Below are positions 6,158-63,907 of a stretch of 64,000 bases of DNA, piece after piece. Origin of the DNA: Escherichia phage 121Q. The notes under the pieces were generated by a model. The model saw only the letters and a program-made list of their open reading frames with translations. It was not told the origin of the DNA and made no database searches. The first letter of the stretch is position 1. Every line of letters starts with the position of its first letter. The stretch lies in the sequence record NC_025447.1, one strand, 5' to 3'. Position numbers and translations under genes: made by a program.

Positions 6158-6174
6158 TAGACATAGAGAAAAAA

Positions 6175-7686: not shown

Positions 7687-7697
7687 ACATTTAAAAG

Positions 7698-7722: not shown

Positions 7723-7757
7723 TAAATATAAAAGAGGAATTAAGAAGAGGGATTACA

Positions 7758-8009: not shown

Positions 8010-8019
8010 TTCAGTAGCA

Positions 8020-8343: not shown

Positions 8344-8352
8344 GGATATATA

Positions 8353-8772: not shown

Positions 8773-8780
8773 TAATAAAA

Positions 8781-8806
8781 GGGTTGACTTCGGTCAGCCT
8801 TTTTTG
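8781..8806 (+). terminator. intrinsic terminator, UUCG-loop hairpin
   Basis: GGGTTGACTTCGGTCAGCC then TTTTTTG. Confidence 0.8.
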
Positions 8807-8841
8807 TTATGATGTTGATATTAACTACAGAGGATAAAGTA

Positions 8842-9483
8842 ATGACTAAGCAAGAAATATTCAAAACTTTAATTGACATTTTGCGTCCATCAAAAACTCG
8901 TTGTGCGATGGAGTTTGATATTCCTTATGCTGAACGCGTAATCTTTCCACAAGTTAAAGCTGCTGGACTTACTTTGCTTGGAATGGGGATGTACTCTGTA
9001 GTAGTTGAACATAAAAACTATCCTGGGCGTGCATTTAAAGTAACCACTTCACGCTGGGATGGTTTTCGTGCTTATGCAAAGTACTGCATTGAAAACGCAG
9101 GAACCAAGTTTCTTCCAGTGATCTACAGTGCCAACGAACAAGGAAACTTTGGATGGTATGAGATGGACAAGTACTATCCTATAATTAAACAAAAAAATAA
9201 TTATGATGACTTTGTTAGTACTAAAATTGGAGATTTATATTCTTATGCACATGCTGGTCAGTACGCTACTTCAGTGAATGATATGCGTGGTAATTCTGAA
9301 GAGATTGCTATTGCAACGGTCGCTGCTAACATCATGAAAGAGTTTCACGGGCGTTTTGTACCAGACATTCATTCAAGTAATGTAATGATGGATAAAGATG
9401 GGAATGTATTCATTACTGATCCTCTTTCGTGTGATGTGCGTAGAGAAATACCAATTACTGAAGAAGATCCAGTTTTTTATTGA
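8842..9483 (+). CDS. protein kinase-like protein
   Basis: ATG 8842 with SD AGAGGA (track start 8809 lies in terminator); Gly-rich loop GMGMYSVV, AFKV lysine, D-x4-N and ITDP motifs near C-terminus. Confidence 0.55.
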   Translation: MTKQEIFKTLIDILRPSKTRCAMEFDIPYAERVIFPQVKAAGLTLLGMGMYSVVVEHKNYPGRAFKVTTSRWDGFRAYAKYCIENAGTKFLPVIYSANEQGNFGWYEMDKYYPIIKQKNNYDDFVSTKIGDLYSYAHAGQYATSVNDMRGNSEEIAIATVAANIMKEFHGRFVPDIHSSNVMMDKDGNVFITDPLSCDVRREIPITEEDPVFY

Positions 9484-29233: not shown

Positions 29234-30424
29234 TTACAATTGTCTAGGTGTATCCAGTACATATCTATTTGTAGTAGGACCACCATCATCATATGTTCCG
29301 GTTGAATATATATTTTTCATATCAGCAGTTAGGAAAGTACGATACGAACCGCGATATATTTTTATTTTATCATACATAGAATATGTTATTCCTGACGGCA
29401 ATGGACATGCAGTAAATTTACCAATAGTAACATTAGAACCAACACCCAATGAACCAGCATAGGCACTCGCATTTAAACCAGTTGCATATACACCTGTACT
29501 CGTAATTAGTATACTAGATTGTGTTGGGTATCCAGTATGAATTGAATACAAAGTACCAGGTGGTAGAGTAGTACTGTTATTTCCTAAAACTCCATTAACA
29601 GTGCTAGATGTAGTGTTATTTCCCCATGCTCCATTATTAGCTAACCCACCCACTAGGAACTGACGTGCTCCTGTATTTGGATTTTCAACTAAAGCACTTA
29701 CTGCACCAGTTGAGCATCCTGTGTATTGTAACGTTTTTGTGTATGTTGTATTTGGTTGATATAAAGTATATTCATTATATGAAGTCCATGTAGTCGCGGA
29801 ACTTATACCGGATGTAACACCACCAATATATAAATTATTTTGTTTATCAAACAACAATACACAGTTATTTGTTGACTGTATTTGTGCAATATCAACATTA
29901 GGTGTGACCGCTTTTACAAATGAACCATCGGTTATTTCATAAGTAGTTCCCGTTCCATCGGCGAATTGTCTAGCACTGTTCCACCCTGTACTCCATATTG
30001 TATTATTGTCCATTAAGAAAGTAAACCACGTAGTACCTGCATACATCTGTTTAATTGAAGTACTTGAACTTTGTGTGTACAAATTTTGAATATATTGGTT
30101 ATAACTTAAAAACGTAGTAGTACTAGTTGATAAACCAATATGACTACCATATCCACAGTAATAATAATTTGAGTCATTGTCTTTTACTAATAAAGTTCCT
30201 TGTGTAAGCCAGCAATCGTTAACGTTTTCTCTAATTAATGTCCATGATTTTAATGCAGTGTTGTTTCCTCTACCGAATTTCCCAAAACTATTAGTCCCAC
30301 GTGCATATAGTTGACCATCCGTATACAGAACCACAACATCTAAATCAGTTGGGATTATTTTCTTAATTTTAAGTGGTACTGGGGCAATATTCCCATAATT
30401 CATCATTCTTGCAAAAGGTAACAT
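29234..30424 (-). CDS. RCC1-like repeat (beta-propeller) protein, paralog H
   Basis: leader MLPFARMMNYGNIAP; Gly/Thr/Ser/Asn-rich repeats. Confidence 0.75.
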   Translation of the reverse strand: MLPFARMMNYGNIAPVPLKIKKIIPTDLDVVVLYTDGQLYARGTNSFGKFGRGNNTALKSWTLIRENVNDCWLTQGTLLVKDNDSNYYYCGYGSHIGLSTSTTTFLSYNQYIQNLYTQSSSTSIKQMYAGTTWFTFLMDNNTIWSTGWNSARQFADGTGTTYEITDGSFVKAVTPNVDIAQIQSTNNCVLLFDKQNNLYIGGVTSGISSATTWTSYNEYTLYQPNTTYTKTLQYTGCSTGAVSALVENPNTGARQFLVGGLANNGAWGNNTTSSTVNGVLGNNSTTLPPGTLYSIHTGYPTQSSILITSTGVYATGLNASAYAGSLGVGSNVTIGKFTACPLPSGITYSMYDKIKIYRGSYRTFLTADMKNIYSTGTYDDGGPTTNRYVLDTPRQL

Positions 30425-30495
30425 ATTTCCCTCCTTTATTCATTATACTATATTTAATACAAATAAGAAAGCCAGTACAGTGTACTGGCATTATA
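30425..30495 (-). promoter_or_regulatory. intergenic cassette: terminator hairpin plus promoter-like and SD block
   Basis: GCCAGTACACTGTACTGGC hairpin, conserved block. Confidence 0.55.
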
Positions 30496-31635
30496 TTATT
30501 TCCACGGTAGAAGTGAATCAGGAACCCTTGTTGGTACAGTAGTTGAAGACATTCCAGTAAGATTGGGTACACCACATGTGTATAAATTATTATATTCGTC
30601 AACTAACATCGTATAAGAATAGCTCTTACAAAAACTACTAAGATTACTACCTTCTAATGCAGTAAGATCCATTTCAGCGAATGATGTTATATACATATCA
30701 GTTGTACCAATACCACATTGACCATTTGAATTAAGGCCACATGAAAATAACTTATTATTATTATTAATTATACAGGATGGTCCGGTAAGGTTTGTCCCAA
30801 GCTCACCCACCAACTCCACTTCTCCTTGGAATGATAAATTTGGAATTAATGTACTCATTGGGGCTACTGACCTATTTCCTGTACCTGCTTGTCCATAGTC
30901 GTTAATAGATGCAACTTTAACATTACCATCATTAAGAAATATATAAGAAGTTTCATTTGTATTGACTGCTTTAATTGCATTACTAATCGAAGTATCTTGT
31001 GTAAATGTGAGCAAGTTTTGTGTCGTCGTTCCTGATACAAACGTTCTACCTGCATACCAATATGAACCATCATTTAGTACTAATCCAGTACTATATATTG
31101 CACAACCAGCACTGATAACATTTTCTATTGTACTATAGGTGAATCGTGAAACGCTTGAAGTTGATCCATTCCCAAAAACACCACCAGTACCAGCACCACA
31201 GTAGAACCACTTTCCATTTTTTAAAAATACACGCATACACGAAGATATCACAACACTATCAATATCATCTGCACTGACACCGAAATCAGTAAAGTTCTGT
31301 GTTATATCAACCCAAACGCCGTTAGTGTTTGAAGATAGTATTGGAATAACAGTACGTCTACCAGTGTACCAAATAGTACCATCTTTCTTTATAGCAATTG
31401 TTCCTTGTACCCCACCCCAATATCGTGTAACATTTGAGTTGACAAGAGTCCATTCAGTTGAAGAGTCCAATGAACTATTACCACTTTGTCCATATGCTGA
31501 AGAACCAAACCAATATAGATTGCCATTTGTGTGTAAATAAAATTTGGCATCAGCAGAACATTGTAACCTGTTTTTAGGTAGAATCAGTTCAGGTGCGATA
31601 TTCCCGTACTTAACCATTCTTGCAAAAGGTAACAT
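30496..31635 (-). CDS. RCC1-like repeat (beta-propeller) protein, paralog I
   Basis: start at conserved MLPFARMVKYGNIAP (track ORF reads through the intergenic region); close paralog of K, same C-terminus VPTRVPDSLLPWK. Confidence 0.75.
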   Translation of the reverse strand: MLPFARMVKYGNIAPELILPKNRLQCSADAKFYLHTNGNLYWFGSSAYGQSGNSSLDSSTEWTLVNSNVTRYWGGVQGTIAIKKDGTIWYTGRRTVIPILSSNTNGVWVDITQNFTDFGVSADDIDSVVISSCMRVFLKNGKWFYCGAGTGGVFGNGSTSSVSRFTYSTIENVISAGCAIYSTGLVLNDGSYWYAGRTFVSGTTTQNLLTFTQDTSISNAIKAVNTNETSYIFLNDGNVKVASINDYGQAGTGNRSVAPMSTLIPNLSFQGEVELVGELGTNLTGPSCIINNNNKLFSCGLNSNGQCGIGTTDMYITSFAEMDLTALEGSNLSSFCKSYSYTMLVDEYNNLYTCGVPNLTGMSSTTVPTRVPDSLLPWK

Positions 31636-31705
31636 ATTCCCTCCTTTATTTGTTATACTATATTTAATACAAATAAGAAAGCCAGTACAGTGTACTGGCA
31701 TTATG
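31636..31705 (-). promoter_or_regulatory. intergenic cassette: terminator hairpin plus promoter-like and SD block
   Basis: GCCAGTACACTGTACTGGC hairpin, conserved block. Confidence 0.55.
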
Positions 31706-32815
31706 TTATTTTGGTAAATCAATTTTAGTAAAGACTGCAACATCCTCGATTGCACCTGGAATGGCGTAATACGATCCAGTACTATACACATCTCCATTTT
31801 TGGTTAATATCGATGTCAAACCATCACTAAAAAGAACATCCCTAATCTCACTAACTTCAACGGGTAATTGTAAATTGGTAGCACTATATATAGCACCAGT
31901 TTGAGAATTGTTTAATCCCAAACCACGGTTCGCCCCAACACCCTTCTGATATGTACTAGTAATTACCATTTGTGTAGCAGTATTTAAGGCAGGTGAATTC
32001 GTCATAAACAATGGAGAACTATTAGGCAAAGTACTTACAGGAACTGCACGGAATGTAGTCGTACCTGAACTAAGAAAGTTTGGAGTTTGACCACATACGA
32101 AATATGATGTACCATTATAGTAATTGAATGCATTACCACCAATGGCTGCATCGATTACACCAGAACTACGCAATCCCCAAGTGTTAATTTGTGTTTGGTT
32201 CCCCGTACCATGCTGTCCACTACTATTCCATCCAGAACTATATAGCTTATTATCTAATGTAAGATACATACTATCATTCGCATTGGTCATTACTTTACGA
32301 ACGTTCGTAGCACATTGAGTTAATGTGTAAATTGATGAGGAACCAATACCCAAAGAACCACGATATCCATTATCTCCTGCACCATAGAGTACTGAATTAG
32401 TGCTAAGTACAAATATTAAACCATTTGTACATACAATATTAGCAATTTCACTTACTGGTATAGCATTGGTAAACCAATTAGTCCTTTCAACTAATACAGT
32501 ACTGTAAGAAGTAGTTGTAGAAGATGAGAACCAGTACGTTTGACCTGATGTCCATATCGTATTATCATTTTTAATAATAACAAGTGTACGATCACCCACG
32601 AAAAAATTAGAAACATCTGCACTTACTAATATCCATGAAGATACCGTGTTGGTATTACCATTTCCAGATTCACCACCTTGATTTCTACCTATGTAATATA
32701 AATCATGTGAATCAGTCAATAAGAATTGACCTTGTGTAGAAGCACCAACTTTAATTATATTTTTAGGACCAGGTACAATATTTCCGTACTTAACCATTCT
32801 TGCAAAAGGTAACAT
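31706..32815 (-). CDS. RCC1-like repeat (beta-propeller) protein, paralog J
   Basis: leader MLPFARMVKYGNIVP; GSLGIG and GQHGTG repeats. Confidence 0.75.
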   Translation of the reverse strand: MLPFARMVKYGNIVPGPKNIIKVGASTQGQFLLTDSHDLYYIGRNQGGESGNGNTNTVSSWILVSADVSNFFVGDRTLVIIKNDNTIWTSGQTYWFSSSTTTSYSTVLVERTNWFTNAIPVSEIANIVCTNGLIFVLSTNSVLYGAGDNGYRGSLGIGSSSIYTLTQCATNVRKVMTNANDSMYLTLDNKLYSSGWNSSGQHGTGNQTQINTWGLRSSGVIDAAIGGNAFNYYNGTSYFVCGQTPNFLSSGTTTFRAVPVSTLPNSSPLFMTNSPALNTATQMVITSTYQKGVGANRGLGLNNSQTGAIYSATNLQLPVEVSEIRDVLFSDGLTSILTKNGDVYSTGSYYAIPGAIEDVAVFTKIDLPK

Positions 32816-32889
32816 AATTCCCTCCTTTATTCATTATACTATATTTAATACAAAAAAGAAAAGCCAGTATCAAGTACTGGCATATTACA
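32816..32889 (-). promoter_or_regulatory. intergenic cassette: terminator hairpin plus promoter-like and SD block
   Basis: GCCAGTACTTGATACTGGC hairpin, conserved block. Confidence 0.55.
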
Positions 32890-34032
32890 TTATTTCCACG
32901 GTAGAAGGGAATCGGGGACTCTGGTTGGAACTCTCACGGCTGGAACATTTCCAAGTTCAGCCAAACCACTCATATACAAATTGTTATTTTCATCAATTAT
33001 CATTGAATAGAAATTATCAATTACGAAGCCTGAAATTCGTCTTCCTTCTAATGCATCAAGAACCATTTCGGTGAAAGTTAATATATTTTCGGATGTTTGA
33101 TTAACACCACATGCACCATAGGTATTTCGACCACAAGTATATAACTTATTATTATTTTTAACAACACATCCATTCCCTTCGTTGTTGGATAAACCACCCA
33201 CCAACTCTATTTCACCTTGGAATGATAAATTGGGAATTAATGTACTCATTGGTACTGCTGATACTCTACCTACACCAGCTTGACCATATGCATTTGGTGA
33301 AGCAACCTTCACTGAACCATCATTAAGAAATATATATGAAGTACGGTATGTATTTACAGCTTGTATAGCATTGGTGATCGTATTGTCTTTTGTAAAACTT
33401 AATATATTTGATGTTGTTGTACTACCAGGAGCAACAGTATTTCCTGCATACCAATAGGAACCATCATCAAGAACTAACCCAGTACTGAGCAAAGAACAGC
33501 CATAACTTTTAACATTTTCTATAGTGCTGTATCTGAACGATGTGACATTAGCTGTTGACGCGTTACCAAATACACCACCCTCGCCAGCACCACAGTAGAA
33601 CCATTTTCCATTTTTCAAAAATACACGCAAATTCTGTCCAACAGCAATACCATCAATATCATCAGCACTGACACCAAAATCAGTGAAGTACTGGGTTACA
33701 TCAATCCAAACCCCATTTGTATTTGTTCCGATTTGTGGCATTACTATACTAGCACCTGTGAACCAAATAGTTCCATCATTCTTAATGGCAATGGAACCAA
33801 GAACACCACCCCAGTAACGTTCAATATTATTATTCACACGGGTCCATACGGTGGATGATTGTAATGAACCATTACCACCTTGTCCAAATGAAGATGAACC
33901 ATACCAGTACAAGTCACCATTAACATGCAAATAAAAACGAGTATTATAATTTGCTTGTAATCTATTTTTAAATAGAGGTTTTGGTTCTGGTGCTTCATTT
34001 CCGTACTTAACCATTCTTGCAAAAGGTAACAT
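32890..34032 (-). CDS. RCC1-like repeat (beta-propeller) protein, paralog K
   Basis: leader MLPFARMVKYGNEAP; close paralog of I. Confidence 0.75.
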   Translation of the reverse strand: MLPFARMVKYGNEAPEPKPLFKNRLQANYNTRFYLHVNGDLYWYGSSSFGQGGNGSLQSSTVWTRVNNNIERYWGGVLGSIAIKNDGTIWFTGASIVMPQIGTNTNGVWIDVTQYFTDFGVSADDIDGIAVGQNLRVFLKNGKWFYCGAGEGGVFGNASTANVTSFRYSTIENVKSYGCSLLSTGLVLDDGSYWYAGNTVAPGSTTTSNILSFTKDNTITNAIQAVNTYRTSYIFLNDGSVKVASPNAYGQAGVGRVSAVPMSTLIPNLSFQGEIELVGGLSNNEGNGCVVKNNNKLYTCGRNTYGACGVNQTSENILTFTEMVLDALEGRRISGFVIDNFYSMIIDENNNLYMSGLAELGNVPAVRVPTRVPDSLLPWK

Positions 34033-34106
34033 AATTCCCTCCTTTATTCATTATACTATATTTAATACAAAAAAGAAAAGCCAGTATCAAGTACTGGCAT
34101 ATCAAA
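34033..34106 (-). promoter_or_regulatory. intergenic cassette: terminator hairpin plus promoter-like and SD block
   Basis: GCCAGTACTTGATACTGGC hairpin, GTATTAAATATAGTATAATGAATAAAGGAGG. Confidence 0.55.
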
Positions 34107-35255
34107 TCACTGCAAAAATGACATATCGACTTCGGTATAATTAAGAACGTTCTGTCCAGCAATACCTCCCATTACTACAATTGAAGCCCCACAATAATAT
34201 AACTTCGAAGTGTCAGTAAGTATAAGTGAACCAGATGGGGTGCGTACCAAATTACACGAAGTATTAAACGAAGTATATGAAGGGGTATAAGAGTACTGAT
34301 TAATATTATTACCAACACCTAATTGACCAGACGAGTTGCTTCCAGATGCATAAAGTACTTCATCACCTTTAACTATATGTGACGCCATGTTACCAACACA
34401 AGTATATAAACTATAAACTCCTGAACTCAATAATGTTGGAGTTTTGTATTGTATATCTGTAGATGAAGAAGTACCACCTGTGCCAAATTCGTTCCCGTAT
34501 TGTGCACCGAACTGTTTACCACAAGCGTACAAATTATTATCCGATTTAATAAAAAATGTACTCTGATAACTGACATTACAATCTATAACATCCGAAGAAA
34601 TCATCGTCACCCCAGTAATAGAAGTTTGATTGCCTGTACCTAACTGATAGTAATAGTTAAAACCACAACCCCATAAAGTATTATCTTCTTTTAGGTATAT
34701 GTTACCAACTGCCTTTTTAACCGAAGTTATAGTATCTACCCTTTTGAATGTGTTAAAAGAATTAATGTTTGTACCATCACCAAATGATGATAGGTTAGAG
34801 TTATTGTTAGCTCCACAACAATACAATGTACCATCGTTTGTTATCAAATTTACCTTCATATCATTAAAACTACTCATGTATTTTATATCAGAAACATTAA
34901 TACCACCTGATGTTATCCATGTAGTACAGTCCGTCCACAAAGTTTTTCTATCAGTTACACCAGTGAATGCCTTCGTGTTGCCAGTGATAAAAACTTTTCC
35001 CGTACCTTTCTCTTCGTACAATTGACAATCACTACTGTTATCTTCCAATAGAACTCGTTTAACATTCTCCGCACAAAGAATAAATTTACTCGATGCTACA
35101 CCTGTTCCAGTACCCCAATTCGTCGCAGAAGATGCATACAACTTATCAGTATAAGTATCATGAAGATACATGGAATCACTGGAATATATTTTAAAACGTC
35201 CATCATCACCAGGGGCAATATTCCCGTACTTAACCATTCTTGCAAAAGGTAACAT
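34107..35255 (-). CDS. RCC1-like repeat (beta-propeller) protein, paralog L
   Basis: start at conserved MLPFARMVKYGNIAP; close paralog of F. Confidence 0.75.
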   Translation of the reverse strand: MLPFARMVKYGNIAPGDDGRFKIYSSDSMYLHDTYTDKLYASSATNWGTGTGVASSKFILCAENVKRVLLEDNSSDCQLYEEKGTGKVFITGNTKAFTGVTDRKTLWTDCTTWITSGGINVSDIKYMSSFNDMKVNLITNDGTLYCCGANNNSNLSSFGDGTNINSFNTFKRVDTITSVKKAVGNIYLKEDNTLWGCGFNYYYQLGTGNQTSITGVTMISSDVIDCNVSYQSTFFIKSDNNLYACGKQFGAQYGNEFGTGGTSSSTDIQYKTPTLLSSGVYSLYTCVGNMASHIVKGDEVLYASGSNSSGQLGVGNNINQYSYTPSYTSFNTSCNLVRTPSGSLILTDTSKLYYCGASIVVMGGIAGQNVLNYTEVDMSFLQ

Positions 35256-35303
35256 AATTCCCTCCTTATTCATTATATCATATTTACCCAATAAAGAAAA
35301 CCC

Positions 35304-35786: not shown

Positions 35787-35996
35787 ATGAATACTGAACA
35801 TAAAGAATTCTACACCAAATACCTTAGCAACGAAGAACAATTGTTTCTAAGGAGTGTATCACCTTTAAGTATAGATACACCACACGCCAGAGATTGCTTT
35901 AATAATTGTATACGTAGTACTCTAGAAGCAATCGAATGTAATAACAAAAATATTATGTACTCTGGTTTAATAGGACTAATATATTTCTATGAATAA
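35787..35996 (+). CDS. S-array small protein
   Basis: N-term MNTEHKEFY, C-term LIYFYE; abuts neighbours. Confidence 0.6.
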   Translation: MNTEHKEFYTKYLSNEEQLFLRSVSPLSIDTPHARDCFNNCIRSTLEAIECNNKNIMYSGLIGLIYFYE

Positions 35997-36183
35997 TCAT
36001 AAAGATTTCTATTGTAGTAAACTACCCAAACAAGAACAGCTATCATTCTCTTTAGCACCACCTATGAGAAAGGATAATCTGTATTATAATTACGATTTCA
36101 GGATGGTGACACGTTATGCAATAGAACATACGTTCCCTGCAACTAAGTACCGCTCTATCCTGAACCTCATCTTTAAGTTCTAA
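35989..36183 (+). CDS. S-array small protein
   Basis: N-term MNNHKDFY; start overlaps upstream stop. Confidence 0.6.
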   Translation: MNNHKDFYCSKLPKQEQLSFSLAPPMRKDNLYYNYDFRMVTRYAIEHTFPATKYRSILNLIFKF

Positions 36184-36235
36184 AAGGTACACCAGGGACC
36201 GAGTACTTTAATATAGTAAGGCTAATTACATTATA

Positions 36236-36421
36236 ATGAATCATATAAGCTACTACTACCAACAACTATCCGACAGAGACAAGTACAGTCACAACTCCCA
36301 TGTGTGGTACTACAAACGCGGCAGTATAAGAGACAAACAACATTACTTCTGTATTTCTATTAAAGAAGCACTAACAACTAAGTACACGTACCGAGCAGTA
36401 CTTAAACTTATTGAAATGTAA
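36236..36421 (+). CDS. S-array small protein
   Basis: 61-aa tandem paralog, C-term VLKLIEM. Confidence 0.55.
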   Translation: MNHISYYYQQLSDRDKYSHNSHVWYYKRGSIRDKQHYFCISIKEALTTKYTYRAVLKLIEM

Positions 36422-36429
36422 GGAAGAAA

Positions 36430-36612
36430 ATGAATATAGAATTCTATTTAACTAAACTACAACACGCCGAAAGATTCAACTTCAATAAGTTCAATATTTT
36501 CTACAATTGCGGGAACAAAAAAGATAAACACACCTTCCTATATGTCGTCACAAGAGATGCACAAAACGAAAAGTACACATACAGAGAAGTAATGAAACTA
36601 ATCGCTATTTAA
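36430..36612 (+). CDS. S-array small protein
   Basis: SD AAGGAAG; C-term VMKLIAI. Confidence 0.55.
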   Translation: MNIEFYLTKLQHAERFNFNKFNIFYNCGNKKDKHTFLYVVTRDAQNEKYTYREVMKLIAI

Positions 36613-36620
36613 GGAATACT

Positions 36621-36800
36621 ATGCAACAATTCTATATAGAACGTATAACCATAAAAGACCGTTTCATGTACGACACCTTCGTTGATTACTACAACCTAGG
36701 AACAAAAAGTACTAAAAATATTAATCTCAATAGCTGCATTTATGCTGTACTAACACAAGATAATCCCTACAGGGAAATCCTCGCACTGGCATCTATATAA
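36621..36800 (+). CDS. S-array small protein (59 aa)
   Basis: not in ORF track; ATG 36621 with SD AAGGAA; fills array gap. Confidence 0.5.
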   Translation: MQQFYIERITIKDRFMYDTFVDYYNLGTKSTKNINLNSCIYAVLTQDNPYREILALASI

Positions 36801-36810
36801 AGGAAACCAA

Positions 36811-37482
36811 ATGAAACTTAATGCACACAGCAAACAATACCTTAAGCACTTTAAGTACCTCAATAGTATTCAGGCAGAATCCGTTACATCTGCATATACG
36901 TATCACCCGAATGTACTAAAGAAACGAAATAAAAAGGAAAAATCCAGTACAAATGGAGTTAACGTATCAAAGAACCTTGAATTGTACATGAAGAAAAATA
37001 ATATAGCTGTTCATTATATGAATATCTATAATACTGATTTAAAAGTATTGAGTACTAATACGAGCACGAAGGTACTAAAGAACGCATCCTTCATCATCAA
37101 TATGCAGTTGGATAATACCCCGTGCACTTTAATGCTATACTTCGGGAATACATACTTCTTCGGGAATTGTAACACCTCCCACGATGTCAATACAGCACAA
37201 TTCCAAATGGGTGGCATATACTCTACTGATGCAGAAAAAGTACACGAGAATATGCACTTCTGGCAAGCACAACGTACAGAAGAAACTAAATCAATTGTAG
37301 ATTTCCTCAAAGAACTAGAACACAAAGAACTACAGGAAGAAGAACTATTCATGTACAGTACTGTAATCGATAATCCAGTACTCTATAAAAACGCGTACAA
37401 TCTGACAAAACATGTACAGGAAATTATCAGTACTAATAAGAAAATGCATCACCTCATTACGTATATTACAAACTATGTATAA
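36811..37482 (+). CDS. hypothetical protein embedded in S array (223 aa)
   Basis: SD AAGGAAA; larger ORF unlike neighbours. Confidence 0.6.
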   Translation: MKLNAHSKQYLKHFKYLNSIQAESVTSAYTYHPNVLKKRNKKEKSSTNGVNVSKNLELYMKKNNIAVHYMNIYNTDLKVLSTNTSTKVLKNASFIINMQLDNTPCTLMLYFGNTYFFGNCNTSHDVNTAQFQMGGIYSTDAEKVHENMHFWQAQRTEETKSIVDFLKELEHKELQEEELFMYSTVIDNPVLYKNAYNLTKHVQEIISTNKKMHHLITYITNYV

Positions 37483-37657
37483 AGAATACTATATCTCTAA
37501 ACTACCCGTGCAGCAAAAATACTTTGCTGCATACAAAGTTCTTCTCATAACTCGTGCCGCTCGATCTAACTACATGAATAGCGTAAAACGTGCTATAGAA
37601 AATGATGACGCAATGAACCAGTACTATAACATTTTACTACTAATATATAAGTACTAA
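37475..37657 (+). CDS. S-array small protein
   Basis: start MYKEYY at 37475 overlapping upstream stop; C-term LLLIYKY. Confidence 0.6.
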   Translation: MYKEYYISKLPVQQKYFAAYKVLLITRAARSNYMNSVKRAIENDDAMNQYYNILLLIYKY

Positions 37658-37667
37658 AGAGAACAAC

Positions 37668-37850
37668 ATGCACAAAGAATACTACAGGGATAAAATACCT
37701 ATGCATCTCCAGCACCATATACCAACAGAACCAATAGGAATAAAAGATCACGCAAAGATAATGTTCCAACAATGTACTAAGTACACGCTCATATACGATG
37801 ATAATCCATATATGCTGTACTACGTAGTAATGCTAACATTCAGGTACTAA
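37668..37850 (+). CDS. S-array small protein
   Basis: MHKEYY...MLTFRY. Confidence 0.6.
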   Translation: MHKEYYRDKIPMHLQHHIPTEPIGIKDHAKIMFQQCTKYTLIYDDNPYMLYYVVMLTFRY

Positions 37851-37851
37851 T

Positions 37852-38043
37852 ATGAATAACCACAAAGAATACTACATAGAGAAACTCCCAATGTATCTCC
37901 AACACCTTGTACCAACAGAACCATTGGGTATAGAAAAAAACTACGAAAAAGACTACTTCATTCAGTGCACTAAATCCTCGATATATATTGAAGACTATAA
38001 TCGAGTACTGTATCACATCCTTTTACTAATATATAAGTACTAA
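37852..38043 (+). CDS. S-array small protein
   Basis: MNNHKEYY...LLLIYKY; 1 nt from upstream stop. Confidence 0.6.
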   Translation: MNNHKEYYIEKLPMYLQHLVPTEPLGIEKNYEKDYFIQCTKSSIYIEDYNRVLYHILLLIYKY

Positions 38044-38044
38044 T

Positions 38045-38227
38045 ATGCACAAAGAATACTACACACAATTTCTCCCCAGCATTTTTGAACACTACGCCAG
38101 ATATAAAGTCCCTCTGGATAACGATTTGGCAGTACTGGGATTCAATAACTGCATAGAACGAAGTATAGAAAATAGTAGTAGTTATGACCAGCTATATAAC
38201 ACTATCCTACTTATATTCAGGTACTAA
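38045..38227 (+). CDS. S-array small protein
   Basis: MHKEYY...ILLIFRY. Confidence 0.6.
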   Translation: MHKEYYTQFLPSIFEHYARYKVPLDNDLAVLGFNNCIERSIENSSSYDQLYNTILLIFRY

Positions 38228-38228
38228 C

Positions 38229-38417
38229 ATGCATAAAGAATACTACACAAAATATTTCCCAATGTACCTCAGAACTAATCTATTAGATAAACCTCGCGGT
38301 ATCAATGCACAAAATGATAAAGTGTATTTTACTATGTGCACTAAAGCATGTATACTAGATTTTGACAGCTACCATCGAGTACTGTATCATACCCTGTACC
38401 TAGCTTTCGTATTCTAA
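38229..38417 (+). CDS. S-array small protein
   Basis: start MHKEYY at 38229 (track start 38184 is internal to upstream gene). Confidence 0.6.
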   Translation: MHKEYYTKYFPMYLRTNLLDKPRGINAQNDKVYFTMCTKACILDFDSYHRVLYHTLYLAFVF

Positions 38418-38426
38418 GAGAACAAT

Positions 38427-38612
38427 ATGCATAAAGAATTCTACTTAAGCCATCTGGATCTAAACTCCCAAATGCTTATACCACTAATCCCAATAGATAT
38501 CAAGGATAAGAAAAATACCGAACAATTCATTTACCATACACAGTGTGCGATCACCCCAAATTACATTCCATATGAATTGTACTACATTCTCGCCCTAATA
38601 TATAGGTACTAA
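38427..38612 (+). CDS. S-array small protein
   Basis: MHKEFY...LALIYRY. Confidence 0.6.
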   Translation: MHKEFYLSHLDLNSQMLIPLIPIDIKDKKNTEQFIYHTQCAITPNYIPYELYYILALIYRY

Positions 38613-38613
38613 T

Positions 38614-38799
38614 ATGCATAGAGAATACTACACACAATTTGTTAAAGGGAACTACAAACATGCCGTACCCAGAACCCCTTTAAATTCTCATGACCCAAGT
38701 ACTATATTCTTGTTTAATGACGCAATACGTACAGTACTCAATACTAAAGATGAAGATGTGCAGTACGTATTCTTACTATTACTTATATACAGACACTAA
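38614..38799 (+). CDS. S-array small protein
   Basis: MHREYY...LLLIYRH. Confidence 0.6.
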   Translation: MHREYYTQFVKGNYKHAVPRTPLNSHDPSTIFLFNDAIRTVLNTKDEDVQYVFLLLLIYRH

Positions 38800-38804
38800 C
38801 TAAT

Positions 38805-38987
38805 ATGAATAAAGAACATAAAGAATTCTATATAAGAAAACTAACATTCGTCCCCGTAAGAATATATAAAGAATGCGACCCAAGATTATACCTATGGCAC
38901 TTCAATGAGTGCATAAAAGATTCTATATACCCTAAGAACTATAAAGAACAATTGTGCTCAGTACTAACACTAGTACTATCATATTAA
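38805..38987 (+). CDS. S-array small protein
   Basis: MNKEHKEFY...LVLSY. Confidence 0.6.
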   Translation: MNKEHKEFYIRKLTFVPVRIYKECDPRLYLWHFNECIKDSIYPKNYKEQLCSVLTLVLSY

Positions 38988-39002
38988 TTAATAGAGAATA
39001 CT

Positions 39003-39194
39003 ATGTATAAAAACTTCTATATAAGTAAACTAAAAGAAAATGAACAAGTATGGATTAGATCTATAATTCCACTGGCATTTAATAGATATGCATTTAACAG
39101 ATGTACCGAGATTGCTATAGACCCTTATAATATTAAAGAGAATGTACAGTATAATCAGTACTACTATATCTTAATGCTTATATATAGGAAGTAA
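39003..39194 (+). CDS. S-array small protein
   Basis: MYKNFY...LMLIYRK; last array member. Confidence 0.6.
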   Translation: MYKNFYISKLKENEQVWIRSIIPLAFNRYAFNRCTEIAIDPYNIKENVQYNQYYYILMLIYRK

Positions 39195-52600: not shown

Positions 52601-52614
52601 AAAGAATAAAAAAA

Positions 52615-52640
52615 GGGATTGACTCCGGTCAGTCCCTTTG
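52615..52640 (+). terminator. intrinsic terminator, UCCG-loop variant
   Basis: GGGATTGAC-TCCG-GTCAGTCCC then TTTG; followed by GCTATTATATA. Confidence 0.7.
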
Positions 52641-55898: not shown

Positions 55899-55912
55899 AA
55901 AAGATTAAAAAA

Positions 55913-55938
55913 GGGATTGACTCCAGTCAGTCCCTTTG
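55913..55938 (+). terminator. intrinsic terminator, variant hairpin
   Basis: GGGATTGACTCCAGTCAGTCCC then TTTG. Confidence 0.65.
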
Positions 55939-57818: not shown

Positions 57819-57837
57819 CAAAAAAGAATAAAAAAAG

Positions 57838-57863
57838 GGATTGACTCCGGTCAGTCCCTTTGC
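57838..57863 (+). terminator. intrinsic terminator, UCCG-loop variant
   Basis: GGGATTGACTCCGGTCAGTCCC then TTTG. Confidence 0.7.
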
Positions 57864-59276: not shown

Positions 59277-59486
59277 ATGTTCTATACAGTATACAGCGTT
59301 CTAGGTACTATTGCTGGCGTACATGATAACGTCGCTGATGCTATGCGTACAGTACTAACACAAGTCCCCCTCAAGCCTAAGACTGTTAAGCAGATGACAG
59401 CTAGACTTACCAGGGCTGGCGATGGCGTGGAAGTATGGCAGGACTACGGGGATACACAGATAATCGTTAGCGTAACGAAGGATTAA
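59277..59486 (+). CDS. hypothetical protein
   Basis: 69-aa ORF, SD CAGGAG. Confidence 0.55.
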   Translation: MFYTVYSVLGTIAGVHDNVADAMRTVLTQVPLKPKTVKQMTARLTRAGDGVEVWQDYGDTQIIVSVTKD

Positions 59487-59514
59487 TGCGTAAAGGGATC
59501 TAGTACTGATTCAG

Positions 59515-59580
59515 AAAAAAGTCAAGGCGTTTTTAAAATTATGCGTTAAAAAAATGCATAGGTAATCCCTTGACTTTTTT
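59515..59580. repeat. inverted repeat AAAAAAGTCAAGG ... CCTTGACTTTTTT
   Basis: 13-nt arms separated by about 40 nt, upstream of second tandem array. Confidence 0.5.
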
Positions 59581-59677
59581 GAAATAAAAGGGATTGGACT
59601 ATGGCAAAATGCGTGGGGGGCTAAAGTGCGGGTAACCTTAGCGACTTCGATAAAGGGGTATTACGAATAAAATGTTA

Positions 59678-59705
59678 TTGACTTTTTATACAATTCATAT
59701 ATTAT
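59678..59705 (+). promoter_or_regulatory. sigma70-like promoter TTGACT-N16-TATTAT for T array
   Basis: TTGACT 59678, TATTAT 59700, SD AGGGAG before ATG 59736. Confidence 0.5.
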
Positions 59706-59735
59706 ATGATTGATATTATTTTCAAGGGAGTCCCT

Positions 59736-59933
59736 ATGCGTATTTTAACTCAAGCAGAACACCACGAAAGACTTATCAATAACATGGCTATGATAATGTA
59801 TAAGTCACATGAACGTGGTATTGCCTATAAGCGTGAATTAATTATGGCACTATTCATTGGAACTAACTTTCAGGAAAGGTATGTCAAGGATTGGATTTGG
59901 TATTTAATTGAAGATGTAACGAGTAAACTATGA
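59736..59933 (+). CDS. T-array small protein
   Basis: start MRILTQAEHH with SD AGGGAG (track start 59706 lies in the promoter); FIGTNFQERYV motif. Confidence 0.6.
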   Translation: MRILTQAEHHERLINNMAMIMYKSHERGIAYKRELIMALFIGTNFQERYVKDWIWYLIEDVTSKL

Positions 59934-60130
59934 AAATGCGTAAATTAACCGAAAAAGAATATCAAGCACTGTTACGTAAAAACTTCACAAAGATTTATAA
60001 TACAGACTCACACGTAGAACGAATGGAGTTATACCTTTTGATTACATTGGGAACTAACTATCAGGATGCATGGGTAACGAAATATGTGGATACATTGAAA
60101 AATGAAATTTTGTCCACGAGGAAACAATGA
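59930..60130 (+). CDS. T-array small protein
   Basis: LGTNYQDAWV motif; ATGA overlap with neighbour. Confidence 0.6.
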   Translation: MKMRKLTEKEYQALLRKNFTKIYNTDSHVERMELYLLITLGTNYQDAWVTKYVDTLKNEILSTRKQ

Positions 60131-60183
60131 AAACTATAACACGAACCCAATCATTCGGACTTATCTTGTAATACATGGACTTA

Positions 60184-60336
60184 ATGGTGGATATCAGCAA
60201 AGACCTGCCTAAAACTGCAATTGAAGTTGCAAGAGCAGAGATCCGCATGTTGGCTGTACTGAACACAAACCATCAGGAAGAGTATGTTGACGATTGGATT
60301 CGATTTTTAATAGAAGATATTAAGAGTAAACTATGA
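60184..60336 (+). CDS. T-array member, truncated or disrupted
   Basis: 50-aa ORF with LNTNHQEEYV motif; a 14-aa stub ORF (60127-60171) precedes it. Confidence 0.4.
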   Translation: MVDISKDLPKTAIEVARAEIRMLAVLNTNHQEEYVDDWIRFLIEDIKSKL

Positions 60337-60545
60337 TTATATTAACACCTGAAGAATATAAGAAACGTTTTAAATCTGTCCAGGCTGAAATATTACTTAT
60401 ATACCTTTCAAATGCAGATCTTAACTTATCAAGGGTAATGGAGAAGGATTTACTTATGGGTGCATTTTTGGATACAGACTTTCAGGAGTATTATGTAGGG
60501 GAATACTTTATTGCACTTCAGAACCACATTAAGAGTAAACTATGA
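60333..60545 (+). CDS. T-array small protein
   Basis: LDTDFQEYYV motif; C-term IKSKL. Confidence 0.6.
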   Translation: MIILTPEEYKKRFKSVQAEILLIYLSNADLNLSRVMEKDLLMGAFLDTDFQEYYVGEYFIALQNHIKSKL

Positions 60546-60757
60546 TTATTCTAGAAAAATCATATCAATATACTGAACGCATCGCTGCCAGACAACTTGA
60601 AATCCTCATAATATACGAAGATACTTCTGATTTAAACTTAGCTGAGGTATTGGAAAATGAAATACTTTTGGGTGCATTCTTGGGAACAGACTATCAGGAG
60701 TATTATGAGGAAAAGTATTTGTCATCTCTTGAGAAATACATCAGGAGCAAATTATGA
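60542..60757 (+). CDS. T-array small protein
   Basis: LGTDYQEYY motif; C-term IRSKL. Confidence 0.6.
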   Translation: MIILEKSYQYTERIAARQLEILIIYEDTSDLNLAEVLENEILLGAFLGTDYQEYYEEKYLSSLEKYIRSKL

Positions 60758-60990
60758 AAGTCATTACTGACTTTGAATATAAGGCTCGCTCAGTGAGTGC
60801 AGCGAAGAAAGAGAACACCATCTACCTCACGATGCAAGACATAGAATGGGATAAAATTGAAGAGATGGTTGCTGAAGTATGGCTTGACGCGTTCATGGAT
60901 ACACAGTATCAAAATACGTTCATAGGTAAGTATCTAAATGTTATTATGAAGCACATAGAAAGGAAATCAGCAAATGCGTCACTTAAATGA
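60754..60990 (+). CDS. T-array small protein
   Basis: MDTQYQNTF motif. Confidence 0.6.
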   Translation: MKVITDFEYKARSVSAAKKENTIYLTMQDIEWDKIEEMVAEVWLDAFMDTQYQNTFIGKYLNVIMKHIERKSANASLK

Positions 60991-61231
60991 TGATGAATAT
61001 TCAAAAAGAGTCAAAAAACTTACTCCGAATGCAAGACTAATCTACGATGACGGTGAACTTTCATGGAACGAGATGAAAGTGAAAGTTCATGAGCTATGGT
61101 TGCTGTACTTTATTGGGACTCAATATCAAGAGAAATATTGCACAGACTTCATAGAACAACTAATGGAACTTATACAGGAAAAAGTAAATGAAAGCATCAT
61201 CGCAAAATATAAAAACTTTATCAAGCACTGA
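60974..61231 (+). CDS. T-array small protein
   Basis: IGTQYQEKY motif. Confidence 0.6.
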   Translation: MRHLNDDEYSKRVKKLTPNARLIYDDGELSWNEMKVKVHELWLLYFIGTQYQEKYCTDFIEQLMELIQEKVNESIIAKYKNFIKH

Positions 61232-61460
61232 GTATCAAACTGCCCTCTTCTCCCTTCTAAACACTCTCCGCACGAACAATAAACTTTATAATTCCCGTGA
61301 AGCTGATATCGTCAACGGTGATGTGTTTCTTATGAAATTTATAGGAACGAACTATCAAGAAATGTTTGTTCTACGATACATCTCTGCACTGAGAAATCAA
61401 GTTCAAGAAAAAACCCGCCAAGCCCAAAGAGAATGGAAGAGACAATGCAACAAAGACTAA
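61188..61460 (+). CDS. T-array small protein
   Basis: IGTNYQEMF motif; overlaps upstream gene by 44 nt. Confidence 0.55.
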   Translation: MKASSQNIKTLSSTEYQTALFSLLNTLRTNNKLYNSREADIVNGDVFLMKFIGTNYQEMFVLRYISALRNQVQEKTRQAQREWKRQCNKD

Positions 61461-61696
61461 ATCACAAAATGTATTTTAAACTATTACAGAATCTGGGACA
61501 AAAACACTATGATACAGTATCTGAAATATTACCCTATGATATCATGCGTTTAATTCATAGTGAGGCAGAGATGCTTGTACTGATGACAGGCACTGATAAA
61601 ACAGCAATTACCAAATCTATAGATATGTTCATCGATGCACACTGCCAACACATTAGAACCGAGATATGGAGACGTGAGAATGAAAATCCTGACTGA
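61445..61696 (+). CDS. T-array small protein (divergent)
   Basis: MTGTDKTAI in place of the GTNYQ motif; start could be 61433 or 61445. Confidence 0.5.
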   Translation: MQQRLNHKMYFKLLQNLGQKHYDTVSEILPYDIMRLIHSEAEMLVLMTGTDKTAITKSIDMFIDAHCQHIRTEIWRRENENPD

Positions 61697-61895
61697 GCAT
61701 GAGTATTACAATAGGTTAAGAACTATACAAGGAAAAGTCTCGTGGACTTTTTTAGATAATTCTATTGCAGAAGCGGACCGATGTGTTATAATAGCTGAAA
61801 TGAAGCTATTACTCTTCATTGGGACAAACTATCAAAGTATCTACATAGACGCATGGTTAAGCAGCTTACGTCTGAAGTCGGTGAGTTTAAAATGA
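61680..61895 (+). CDS. T-array small protein
   Basis: start MKILTEHEY; IGTNYQSIY motif. Confidence 0.6.
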   Translation: MKILTEHEYYNRLRTIQGKVSWTFLDNSIAEADRCVIIAEMKLLLFIGTNYQSIYIDAWLSSLRLKSVSLK

Positions 61896-62110
61896 GAAAA
61901 TTAATAGGTTTCGAATATGTTAAGCTTCTACAAACCTGTGGAATCAGAAGGAGAATGATTCAAAAGGATAAAAGAATTGCCGAAGAACGAAAGTATATAA
62001 TGATAACTGAACTTTATGTCTTAACACTCTTAGGCACAAACTATCAACACACTTATGTAGACCTATGGATCGATGCACTACAGAAAGAGGTTAAAAGTAA
62101 ATGCAAATGA
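61892..62110 (+). CDS. T-array small protein
   Basis: start MRKLIGFEY; LGTNYQHTY motif. Confidence 0.6.
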   Translation: MRKLIGFEYVKLLQTCGIRRRMIQKDKRIAEERKYIMITELYVLTLLGTNYQHTYVDLWIDALQKEVKSKCK

Positions 62111-62331
62111 TTATTTTAACTTACATTGAATATCAAAAACGTTTAAATGCATCCAGAGACATAAGGATTCAAATATTCAATAACAAAAGATTGAAGCCTG
62201 ATATCAGGAAAATCAAAATCATAGAAGCAGAGTTGTGCAACTTTCTAGGGACGAACTATCAGGCAGGTAAGGTAGAAAACTATCTTATAGAACTCATGAA
62301 TAGTATTGAAAATAAATGTAAGGGTAATTAA
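62101..62331 (+). CDS. T-array small protein
   Basis: LGTNYQAGK motif. Confidence 0.6.
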   Translation: MQMIILTYIEYQKRLNASRDIRIQIFNNKRLKPDIRKIKIIEAELCNFLGTNYQAGKVENYLIELMNSIENKCKGN

Positions 62332-62332
62332 C

Positions 62333-62599
62333 ATGAAAATGATCAATTTAAGTAAAGATGAATATAACGAGCGACGTGCAAAAATCTCAACTAAACGCAC
62401 CGAAATCTATTACAGCGAAGAAATCAAACACGACAAGAAGATGATTATGATACGTGAGTTGATAATGGGTGCTATGCTAGGAACTAACTATCAAGAACAA
62501 GAGGTACAACTCGTATTAAATGAATTACTAATGGAAATCAGAGGTAAGCTGTACTTTCATCAAATGACCCGCCCACTAAGGTGTACTAGGAATGATTAA
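62333..62599 (+). CDS. T-array small protein
   Basis: start MKMINLSKDEY; LGTNYQEQE motif. Confidence 0.6.
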   Translation: MKMINLSKDEYNERRAKISTKRTEIYYSEEIKHDKKMIMIRELIMGAMLGTNYQEQEVQLVLNELLMEIRGKLYFHQMTRPLRCTRND

Positions 62600-62807
62600 C
62601 ATCACATTACAAGAAAGGTTCATACGCATCAACTATGCAATTTCCAAATTAGATGCTACAATAGGATTTCAAAGTCTACCATTCAAAACAAGAATGATAT
62701 TAGAGTGTGAAGCCAAGTTAGGTGTACTGTTAGGGACGCAACACCAACAACGATATGTGGAAATCTGGATTGACCTTTTAACCCAAAATATATATGAGAG
62801 AATGTAA
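62592..62807 (+). CDS. T-array small protein
   Basis: LGTQHQQRY motif. Confidence 0.6.
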   Translation: MINITLQERFIRINYAISKLDATIGFQSLPFKTRMILECEAKLGVLLGTQHQQRYVEIWIDLLTQNIYERM

Positions 62808-63044
62808 ATGCAAAATGAAATGATATACTTAACACCTGCTGAGTTAACAGAAAGACTAGTTAAATCCAGAAGATATACAAATCAACTTCCTCACAACCCA
62901 AACCAGACCCCAGCCGAAAGGAGTGCAGAAGTTTTATTCCAATCACTACCATACCTTCTTGGAACTAATAGACAAGAGTATCATATCGAACGTATAATTA
63001 AATATCTTAAAATTACTATTAAGGAAAAAGTAAATGCAAAATGA
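62808..63044 (+). CDS. T-array small protein
   Basis: LGTNRQEYH motif; near-duplicate of next gene. Confidence 0.65.
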   Translation: MQNEMIYLTPAELTERLVKSRRYTNQLPHNPNQTPAERSAEVLFQSLPYLLGTNRQEYHIERIIKYLKITIKEKVNAK

Positions 63045-63279
63045 AATGATATACTTAACATATAATGAATACGTCGAGAGATTAGTTAGTGCCAAGAGAT
63101 ATGCCAATCAACTTCCTAATGATCCAAACCAAACCCCAGAGGAAAAGAATGCGGAAGCTCTATTCCAAGCACTACCATACCTTCTTGGAACTGATAGGCA
63201 GGAGTATCACGTTGAACGTATAATTAAATCTCTTAAAATCACTATTAAGGAAAAGATACATGAAACACTTGACAGATGA
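63034..63279 (+). CDS. T-array small protein
   Basis: LGTDRQEYH motif; near-duplicate of previous gene. Confidence 0.65.
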   Translation: MQNEMIYLTYNEYVERLVSAKRYANQLPNDPNQTPEEKNAEALFQALPYLLGTDRQEYHVERIIKSLKITIKEKIHETLDR

Positions 63280-63490
63280 TGAACATGGGCTTATAGTAAT
63301 GGATGTAATCAACATCGAATACAAAAAGTTGATACGCTACCGTTGTTATGAAGATAAGCAACTAGTTCTAGCAGAACAGAAGTTGTTTCGACTCTTAAAC
63401 ACAAACTACCAAGCACAATACGAAGAATCGTATATGTACCTTTTGGCGAGGAAAGCAAAAAGAGATTATGAAAATTTTAAGCAAAGGTGA
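63260..63490 (+). CDS. T-array small protein
   Basis: LNTNYQAQY motif. Confidence 0.6.
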   Translation: MKHLTDDEHGLIVMDVINIEYKKLIRYRCYEDKQLVLAEQKLFRLLNTNYQAQYEESYMYLLARKAKRDYENFKQR

Positions 63491-63689
63491 TTCAGTAATA
63501 TTACTTATAGAGAGTTCAAGTAAATTCTTAAACATAACACTGTCTGATATAGATGAAGATGATAAAGAAGTACTGAGAGCAGATTTAAGAGTACTGTTAC
63601 ATCTCGGAACAAACCTACAAGAAGAATATGTAGAGTGCTACATCAATGAACTTAAAGAATCAGTACTGAGAAGATGCAAATGCAAATGA
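63468..63689 (+). CDS. T-array small protein
   Basis: LGTNLQEEY motif. Confidence 0.6.
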   Translation: MKILSKGDSVILLIESSSKFLNITLSDIDEDDKEVLRADLRVLLHLGTNLQEEYVECYINELKESVLRRCKCK

Positions 63690-63907
63690 AAATGATTACC
63701 GACGAAGAATACCTAACAATTATAAATGGATTGTTTTTGAAGTTGTTTGTTATTAACACATCAGATATACCAGATATGGATAAAATTATTAAGAGAAATG
63801 AAATCTATGTTCTAGCTACCCTGGGAACTAACTATCAAGAATACGATATTAATGATTATATTAATACACTTAAACGAGCGATTGAACTAAAATGCCAAAA
63901 CCACTAG
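63674..63907 (+). CDS. T-array small protein
   Basis: LGTNYQEYD motif. Confidence 0.6.
   Translation: MQMQMKMITDEEYLTIINGLFLKLFVINTSDIPDMDKIIKRNEIYVLATLGTNYQEYDINDYINTLKRAIELKCQNH

Follow-up and report, generated by a model that had tools for sequence, protein, structure and literature searches.

The 64,000-nt stretch of Escherichia phage 121Q DNA analyzed here (sequence record NC_025447.1; hereafter the window) ends in a tandem array of small paralogous genes on the + strand at positions 59736-63907, which we call the T array. In the Asteriusvirus jumbo coliphages this array forms a lineage-specific multigene family of considerable age, and structure prediction places all of its members on one three-helix-bundle scaffold. 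Based on the sequences, the structure models and analogy with other phages, we suggest that the array may be a battery of small early cytoplasmic binders, each with its own target, that serves host takeover or counter-defence, and we put the probability of this reading at roughly 45%.

The array comprises 19 consecutive open reading frames (ORFs) of 48-90 amino acids (aa) in the window, the first of which starts at 59706 or 59736 in the ORF listing, and translation from 63891 (MPKPLGTAEYIELMG...) revealed a twentieth member, T20, cut by the window end. An earlier note on this DNA had described a tandem array of about 19 small paralogs that continues past the window end, and both statements hold, as four further contiguous members (types V-Y) lie beyond the T19 ortholog in relatives. 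The copies past the window end are thus inferred from relatives, and the 121Q array would contain about 23 contiguous members in total. Adjacent genes overlap, as the same note had observed, and they do so at 12 of the 18 junctions, seven of them via ATGA; at the other junctions they are at most 12 nt apart, except for one larger gap after T02, which is present because T03 is damaged. For several members the start codon can be placed only to within about 15 codons.

When the members are aligned from the conserved Met, the consensus reads M-x-x-L-T-x-x-E-Y-x-x-R at the N-terminus and E-x-x-L-x-x-x-L-G-T-N-Y-Q-E-x-Y-V-x-x-(Y/W)-I-x-x-L-x-x-x-I-x-x-K in the C-terminal half, with residue T49 invariant and Q52 present in more than 90% of the members. 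A leave-one-out search with the family hidden Markov model (HMM) recovered 18 of the 19 members with E-values from 3e-7 to 4e-20, and the same model gave zero further matches among the remaining ORFs on both strands of the 64-kb window. The family is identical with phrog_4148 by sequence comparison, as nine of ten tested members match that profile with E = 1e-19 to 1e-26 over profile positions 1-73 of 74; no function is assigned there. The exception in both searches is T09 (61433-61696, 87 aa), a divergent member that fails the leave-one-out search (E = 0.13), has no PHROG match and carries TGTDKTAITKS in place of LGTNYQE. The G-T-N-Y-Q-E core motif proposed in the earlier note therefore stands as the alignment consensus, but not for T09. 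Orthologs of T09 hold the same array position in all relatives, and we included it as a family member only on its position, size, residual motif and the same modeled topology.

Two details of the earlier description needed correction. First, the member at 60184-60336 had been taken as truncated, but it is the 3' part of a full-length gene, T03 (60127-60336), in which a point nonsense mutation, without any deletion, has created an in-frame TAA at 60169-60171 where G17 has AAA. The C-terminal part of the damaged gene still matches the family HMM (E = 4e-14), and in-frame ATG codons at 60175 and 60184 could yield an N-terminally truncated product. Second, T15 (62808-63044, 78 aa, motif Met at 62820) and T16 (63034-63279, 81 aa, motif Met at 63046) had been called near-identical recent duplicates. 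They are indeed the closest pair, yet they share only 81% nucleotide identity over 226 nt and 73% aa identity, and the duplication is not recent because this sub-type is present in two to three copies in all relatives.

The structure of T07 was predicted by AlphaFold2 from a 19-sequence alignment with a mean predicted local distance difference test (pLDDT) score of 97.3, and the model consists of three helices (residues 6-24, 31-46 and 52-84). Residue 2 forms a short β-bridge with residue 49 in the GT turn; helices 2 and 3 are joined by this L-G-T-x-x-Q turn, and the M-x-x-L-T strand at the N-terminus is paired with it. The divergent T09 was predicted with the same three-helix topology at a pLDDT of 82, and BFVD models of other members superpose at TM-scores of 0.62-0.77. 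The conserved columns comprise heptad-like hydrophobic positions and a polar/aromatic cluster formed by T6, E9, Y10, E40, G48, T49, N50, Q52, E53, Y55 and Y59, and they correspond to core or turn positions, with surface and core assigned from helical periodicity. Variation between paralogs is high in columns 15-39, which run from the end of helix 1 through the loop into the start of helix 2. The members contain zero to three Cys residues with no conserved Cys column, and no hydrophobic or transmembrane-like segment was found in any of them (maximum 19-aa hydropathy of 1.44), suggesting that the array proteins are soluble and cytoplasmic.

The isoelectric point (pI) varies from 4.3 to 10 across the members. 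About half of them are basic (pI >9), which, together with the analogy to the zinc-ribbon expansion of phage G (PMC7824862), raises the idea that the array encodes nucleic-acid-binding regulators or nucleoid proteins, that is, a set of specific transcription or translation factors. We consider this very unlikely, since the remaining members are acidic (pI 4.3-6), the model is an antiparallel bundle with helices of 16-33 residues and no helix-turn-helix (HTH), no DNA-binding Pfam domain was matched, and the zinc-ribbon Cys pattern is absent.

The array is well conserved among related phages, and its DNA shows 82-90% nucleotide identity to the Asteriusvirus coliphages ECO103 4-12-1, G17, Sharanji, phAPEC6 and PBECO4. 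When copies were counted with the family HMM, we found 29 contiguous copies in both G17 and PBECO4, 28 in phAPEC6 and 27 in ECO103 4-12-1, each with two additional outliers, and 26 in a Logan contig, 26 in vB_Ec-M-J and 20 in A4, each with three outliers. Clustering sorted the members into about 27 types that occur in the same order in the window and six typed relatives; vB_Ec-M-J contributed a copy count only, with no types assigned. Types F and Q have been lost in the window and types G/H in ECO103 and phAPEC6, and types M, P and U are present in two to four copies. Within a genome, the paralogs have a median identity of about 31% aa, and even the best pair, T15/T16, reaches only the values given above, indicating that the duplications are old and that the types have been retained individually. 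A recent tandem amplification, or genomic accordion, was rejected on the same two grounds, the low paralog identity and the orthology of the types across phages. Alleles at the same position differ strongly between otherwise close phages, from 100% down to about 50-60% aa identity; T10, for example, is 100% identical to its counterparts in ECO103 and the Logan contig and 59-61% identical to those in G17, phAPEC6 and PBECO4.

The pooled ratio of nonsynonymous to synonymous substitution rates (dN/dS) of the array was 0.33-0.39 with an excess of third-position changes in every comparison, the pairs not being independent, and this is twice the value of 19 flanking small genes (0.16-0.20). The columns that vary between paralogs are conserved between orthologs (omega of 0.41). 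These substitution patterns show that each type, kept at its own position across phages, is under purifying selection. These data also bear on the idea that the array is largely dispensable duplicated DNA under weak selection, which mainly adds length to a genome packaged by a headful or direct-terminal-repeat mechanism, in line with the 'ratchet' idea of Hua et al. 2017. Such an array in 121Q was indeed read by these authors as genome expansion by duplication (PMC5646251), the copy number ranges from 20 to 29, one copy (T03) is knocked out by a stop codon, and the dN/dS is twice that of the neighboring genes. Nevertheless, we regard this explanation as quite unlikely, because the dN/dS of about 0.35 with its third-position excess recurs in every comparison, about 27 types are kept in the same order in phages from different continents, the paralog-specific residues are conserved between orthologs, and the family is multi-copy in the distant RaK2 group and in unclassified contigs and has therefore been kept for long.

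General caution is due since tandem arrays can be misassembled, and an assembly artefact, together with non-coding chance ORFs, was considered and is refuted. The array contains no long nucleotide repeat that could collapse or expand, the longest being the 226 nt at 81% identity, which makes an artefact implausible; the order is kept across independent genomes and the array is present in eight independent assemblies. The reading of these ORFs as paralogous protein genes, as proposed in the earlier note, is well founded on the family HMMs, the PHROG matches, the very high-confidence model of T07 and the coding-type substitution pattern. On a larger scale, positions 1-20 kb of the window show 97-99% identity to relatives, and positions 40-64 kb show 82-90% with patchy coverage. 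The divergence in the Asteriusvirus group is concentrated in the presumed early region, which consists of the terminal repeat and the T array.

The array is preceded by an intergenic leader of about 250 nt (59487-59735, + strand), which contains the inner boundary of the direct terminal repeat (DTR) at 59637/59638. Base 1 of the G17 record corresponds to window position 59638, with G17 positions 1-8935 being 100% identical to the copy adjoining the array, and the annotated DTR of vB_Ec-M-J (1-21525) ends at the same spot. Since the G17 start and the vB_Ec-M-J repeat end coincide at this boundary, the window region of about 39.45-59.64 kb is explained as a collapsed terminal repeat of about 20-21.5 kb. 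The T01 ATG is located 98 nt past the boundary, which makes the array the first operon to follow the repeat. The leader shows 96-97% identity in six phages, and the synonymous divergence (dS) of the flanking genes is 0.3-0.4. A putative sigma-70-like promoter (TTGACT-16-TATTAT; 59678-59705, + strand) lies 31 nt upstream of T01 and scores 10/12 in a consensus scan, and it is followed by a ribosome-binding site (RBS), AAGGGAG, at 59724-59730 on the + strand; the -35 box and the RBS are conserved in relatives. A scan of the array found no terminator-like site within it, and in G17 no terminator is annotated until about 5 kb past the array. Folding of the leader was suggestive at most (z = -2.4), a search of 59300-64000 against Rfam gave no match, and an ATGCGT repeat noticed there by eye was not clearly enriched (34 against 24.5 ± 4.8, with 3 of 100 shuffles reaching 34).

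Comparable regions have been studied in other phages. The short-ORF regions of CBB, which carry RpoD-like promoters, were regarded as early host-takeover regions (PMC5259590), and RNA sequencing of PA5oct showed that genes in the DTR region are highly transcribed early (PMC7318152). From the promoter-like site, the position next to the DTR and the analogy with these two phages, we infer that the array is probably expressed early by the host RNA polymerase.

An alternative is that the array encodes packaged internal-head proteins that, in the manner of the T4 internal proteins, enter the cell along with the DNA and disarm the host. The conserved N-terminus M-K/R-x-L-T-x-x-E superficially recalls the T4 capsid-targeting sequence, the T4 internal-protein loci are also hypervariable, and an inner body in the capsid has been reported for 121Q and phAPEC6. 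This alternative is already disfavored and we give it hardly any weight: the N-terminus lies within the folded core in the model, where its strand is paired to the GT turn, the promoter is sigma-70-like and not of a late type, and none of the array products (gp467c-gp489c) is among the 62 proteins of the virion proteome of the sister phage phAPEC6, in which a protein as small as 4.7 kDa was detected.

The family was placed in a wider context by an exhaustive profile search against 1.84 billion representative proteins, which yielded only 75 clusters. It cannot be linked to anything characterized. The named sources of these clusters are Escherichia and Salmonella Asteriusvirus-type phages and E. 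coli assemblies that carry contigs of about 350 kb. The family reaches beyond Asteriusvirus, however. In RaK2, a stretch of 47 kb holds at least 12 members, grouped in small clusters, and members are also present in the RaK2-like phages phiKp_21, Muenster and KP13-7. A 101-kb metagenomic contig (ENA ERZ14189038 NODE_1) carries a 13-gene array of distant members at 5448-8458 together with scattered copies; this contig has no DNA match to known phages in the comparison collection and is probably an unclassified jumbo phage, and another contig holds at least six members. On ERZ14189038 NODE_1 we also observed a ParE_like gene, in a context resembling the locus of phiKp_21.

Only L-G-T-x-x-Q and Y-I-x-x-L are nearly invariant across all distant members. 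Some of these members have an extra C-terminal domain of about 50 aa with the motif EEA..YC..NN, namely RaK2 ORF362 (locus 20170-20535) and ORF372 (23814-24161) and a 123-aa protein of phiKp_21 (locus 8523-8894). Other fusions are a 269-aa protein in EC.P1 and UB (P0072), which joins a T domain to a RaK2 ORF380-like domain of about 200 aa, and P0067, which has an unrelated C-terminal domain, and P0076 from an ENA contig contains two T domains, neighbors that have been joined in frame.

These fusions are relevant to a different view of the family, in which its members are adaptors with a common handle, the conserved end docking on a shared partner (RNA polymerase, a protease or a phage protein) and the variable end or a fused domain bringing the cargo. 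Residues G48, T49 and Q52 hardly vary, even among the RaK2-like and metagenomic members that are farthest removed, ten conserved polar/aromatic positions cluster at one end, and the domain is fused N-terminally to unrelated C-terminal domains in RaK2 ORF362 and ORF372, the 123-aa phiKp_21 protein, P0067 and P0072. On the other side, T-x-x-E and T-x-x-Q at helix starts are classical helix caps and the N-terminal strand pairs with the GT turn, so that the conservation may be purely structural; moreover, no candidate partner gene is conserved beside the array, and T09 is retained under purifying selection although the Q and the greater part of the motif are missing from it. We consider such a family of adaptors unlikely. 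A more specific and decidedly improbable version is a modular adaptor system, in which the invariant L-G-T-x-x-Q end would dock on one host or phage machine and the paralog-specific end or fused domain would pick a host protein, thereby delivering roughly two dozen targets to one effector, which could for instance degrade or sequester them.

Near some of these genes we noticed a gene of 272/273 aa, located directly upstream of T-family genes in phage A4 (locus 5120-5938) and in Klebsiella phage phiKp_21 (locus 7012-7833), with 45% identity between the two. It was considered as a functional partner and rejected, as neither the window nor most of the relatives have it and it resembles a mobile endonuclease. 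Its motif YFYV..KF.Y..ETVYKYGI suggests a GIY-YIG-type mobile endonuclease, and its search against Pfam gave no significant match.

Returning to the reading of the array as a battery of specific binders, we propose the following mechanism. The host RNA polymerase would transcribe the array as one early polycistronic message, and its genes would be translated by coupling. In each protein, the conserved residues would hold the fold, while the paralog-specific stretch, which runs from the far half of helix 1 through the loop into the beginning of helix 2, and the varied surface charge would give each member its own binding partner. As small protein binders, the members may neutralize or redirect different host proteins, either for host takeover or for counter-defence. 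Finally, the array could be tuned to different E. coli strains as single members are gained, lost, replaced by another allele or, occasionally, inactivated.

Here, we need to consider several observations that weigh against this reading. First, no similarity to a known anti-defence or takeover protein was detected in Pfam, NCBIfam, PADLOC or the Protein Data Bank (PDB), where PADLOC covers defence systems, not anti-defence, and no search against an anti-defence library was made. Second, the fold is a generic three-helix bundle, so the structure tells little about function, and the conserved polar/aromatic residues at one end could be a shared functional site and not merely a structural cap. 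Third, the natural fusions of the T domain fit a role as a 'module' that the binder model does not require. Fourth, no sub-region with a dN/dS above 1 was found, and the faster evolution could reflect relaxed constraint instead of an arms race. Fifth, promoters are not enriched overall in the scan, with 32 found against 26 ± 5 in shuffles, and the array promoter is a 10/12 match. Finally, our literature search found neither an Asteriusvirus transcriptome nor a functional study of the array. In addition, profile searches against Pfam, NCBIfam, PADLOC and PDB sequences gave nothing above noise, the fold searches gave no characterized anti-defence match, and no HTH gene of the kind expected for an Aca-type regulator adjoins the array.

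The array has been mentioned before. Hua et al. 2017 (mBio, PMC5646251) devoted one sentence to an array in 121Q, whose genes they called 'very similar' and read as the result of tandem duplication, with no coordinates, family or function, and a 2026 review (PMC13282480) repeats this statement. Their array is probably the T-array locus, as no other array approaches that size (29+2 HMM hits in G17 and PBECO4). In contrast to their description, the genes are about 30% identical at the aa level, the duplication is ancient, and by inference 121Q has about 23 contiguous members. The phrog_4148 entry covers the same protein family and is without function, structure, context, array organization, wider distribution or terminal-repeat position. 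What was already known is therefore the phrog_4148 family and the passing mention by Hua et al.; what is new is the fold, the ortholog-by-ortholog conservation, the faster evolution of the proteins, the reach of the family into RaK2-like and unclassified phages, the fused forms of the domain and the position at the terminal-repeat boundary.

A comparable system is found in Bacillus phage G, for which Iyer et al. 2021 (PMC7824862) described about 35 lineage-specific zinc-ribbon proteins and proposed them to be specific transcription or translation factors. In both cases the genome of a jumbo phage carries a small domain in tens of tandem copies. The T family differs in being a three-helix bundle without paired CxxC motifs, in another host and lineage, and there is no sequence relationship between the two.

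Near-terminal tandem paralogs that differ in copy number and have a presumed anti-host role are also known from African swine fever virus (ASFV; MGF110/360) and from the host-range families of poxviruses. The T array resembles them in its near-terminal site, tandem paralogs, copy-number variation between isolates and presumed anti-host role. However, those are eukaryotic viruses with unrelated proteins, and the copies in a poxvirus accordion are nearly the same and short-lived, in contrast to the T paralogs with their old age and individual conservation. Phage anti-defence clusters, such as anti-CRISPR loci and the hyperplastic early and internal-protein regions of T4, contain small, fast-evolving, early non-structural proteins with patchy presence. 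These clusters hold unrelated small proteins, while the T array consists of 20-30 paralogs of one fold and has neither a known anti-defence domain nor an Aca-type regulator. The weak structural matches of the T family include MIT and FAT domains and the protein A Z-domain/affibodies, which have a similar size and an antiparallel three-helix topology; none of these bundles gave a significant structural superposition. Affibodies show that a three-helix scaffold can carry many binding specificities. Taken together, these comparisons place the T array with the lineage-specific multigene families already known from large viruses, and outside any characterized protein family.

The remaining genes of the array, all on the + strand like those described above, are as follows. 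T01 (59736-59933, 65 aa; leave-one-out HMM E = 7e-15) has an ortholog in all seven other phages, T02 (59930-60130, 66 aa; phrog_4148 at 1e-19) overlaps T01 by ATGA, and T04 (60333-60545, 70 aa) was recovered by the leave-one-out HMM at 1e-19 and T17 (63260-63490, 76 aa) at 3e-7. The modeled T07 (60974-61231, 85 aa) is 100% identical to PBI_121Q_325. Both the PHROG profile and the leave-one-out HMM support T05 (60542-60757, 71 aa), T08 (61188-61460, 90 aa), T11 (61892-62110, 72 aa; longest ORF from 61853), T12 (62107-62331, 74 aa), T18 (63468-63689, 73 aa) and T19 (63674-63907, 77 aa; motif Met at 63686), as they do T15, and the leave-one-out HMM supports T06 (60754-60990, 78 aa), T10 (61680-61895, 71 aa; longest ORF from 61635), T13 (62339-62599, 86 aa) and T14 (62592-62807, 71 aa). 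T20 is represented by its 5' part (63891-64000). In the gene numbering used in the notes of G17, T01-T19 fit 121Q_319-337. The deposited annotation of PBECO4 (KC295538.1, 6004-12361) calls about half of the array genes, with 12 features under the match against 29 HMM members.

The window contains two further paralog arrays. The S array (35787-39194, + strand), located just before the outer end of the terminal repeat, consists of 12 small paralogs in two sub-families, one of the MHKEYY...LIYxY type and the other a trio at 36236-36800; the earlier note had held the T array to be unrelated to it, and at the profile level we agree (hhalign probability of 2%). On the - strand, 21089-35273 carries 14 tandem paralogs of 70-430 aa, twelve of which are 250-430 aa. 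By position and size these may correspond to the ~41 kDa 'DNA condensation protein' paralogs of the phAPEC6 virion (gp003-010, 549 and 551), which the phAPEC6 paper links to hairy fibres.

Within the region of the terminal repeat, 12-nt arms, AAAGGGATTGAC on the + strand and AAAGGGACTGAC on the - strand, are paired at 52612-52639, 55910-55937 and 57834-57861; the complete 28-nt palindrome, AAAGGGATTGACTCCGGTCAGTCCCTTT, was read at the last of these sites only. The palindrome is a terminator-like hairpin with an embedded TTGAC -35 box, to which a -10 box is added downstream, and it looks like a terminator-promoter cassette between early transcription units. The three sites appear to correspond, by position and unaligned, to three ARNOLD terminators of -13.0 annotated in G17.

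Most genes of jumbo phages are small early ORFans of no known role, and the T family is an unusually tractable case among them. It offers 20-30 paralogs of one confidently modeled fold, their position is defined as that of the first operon beyond the repeat, the host is E. coli, for which genetics and defence-system libraries exist, and sequenced isolates provide natural presence/absence variants, allele classes and a knock-out allele. If the array is dispensable, this would lend weight to the idea that duplication has partly padded the genomes of jumbo phages, and if the modular adaptor system is true, it would represent phage-encoded combinatorial targeting on one 70-residue scaffold. If, as we favor, the T proteins are specific binders of host proteins, they would be ready-made probes or inhibitors of E. 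coli functions, and they would account for some of the differences in host range between therapeutic Asteriusvirus phages.

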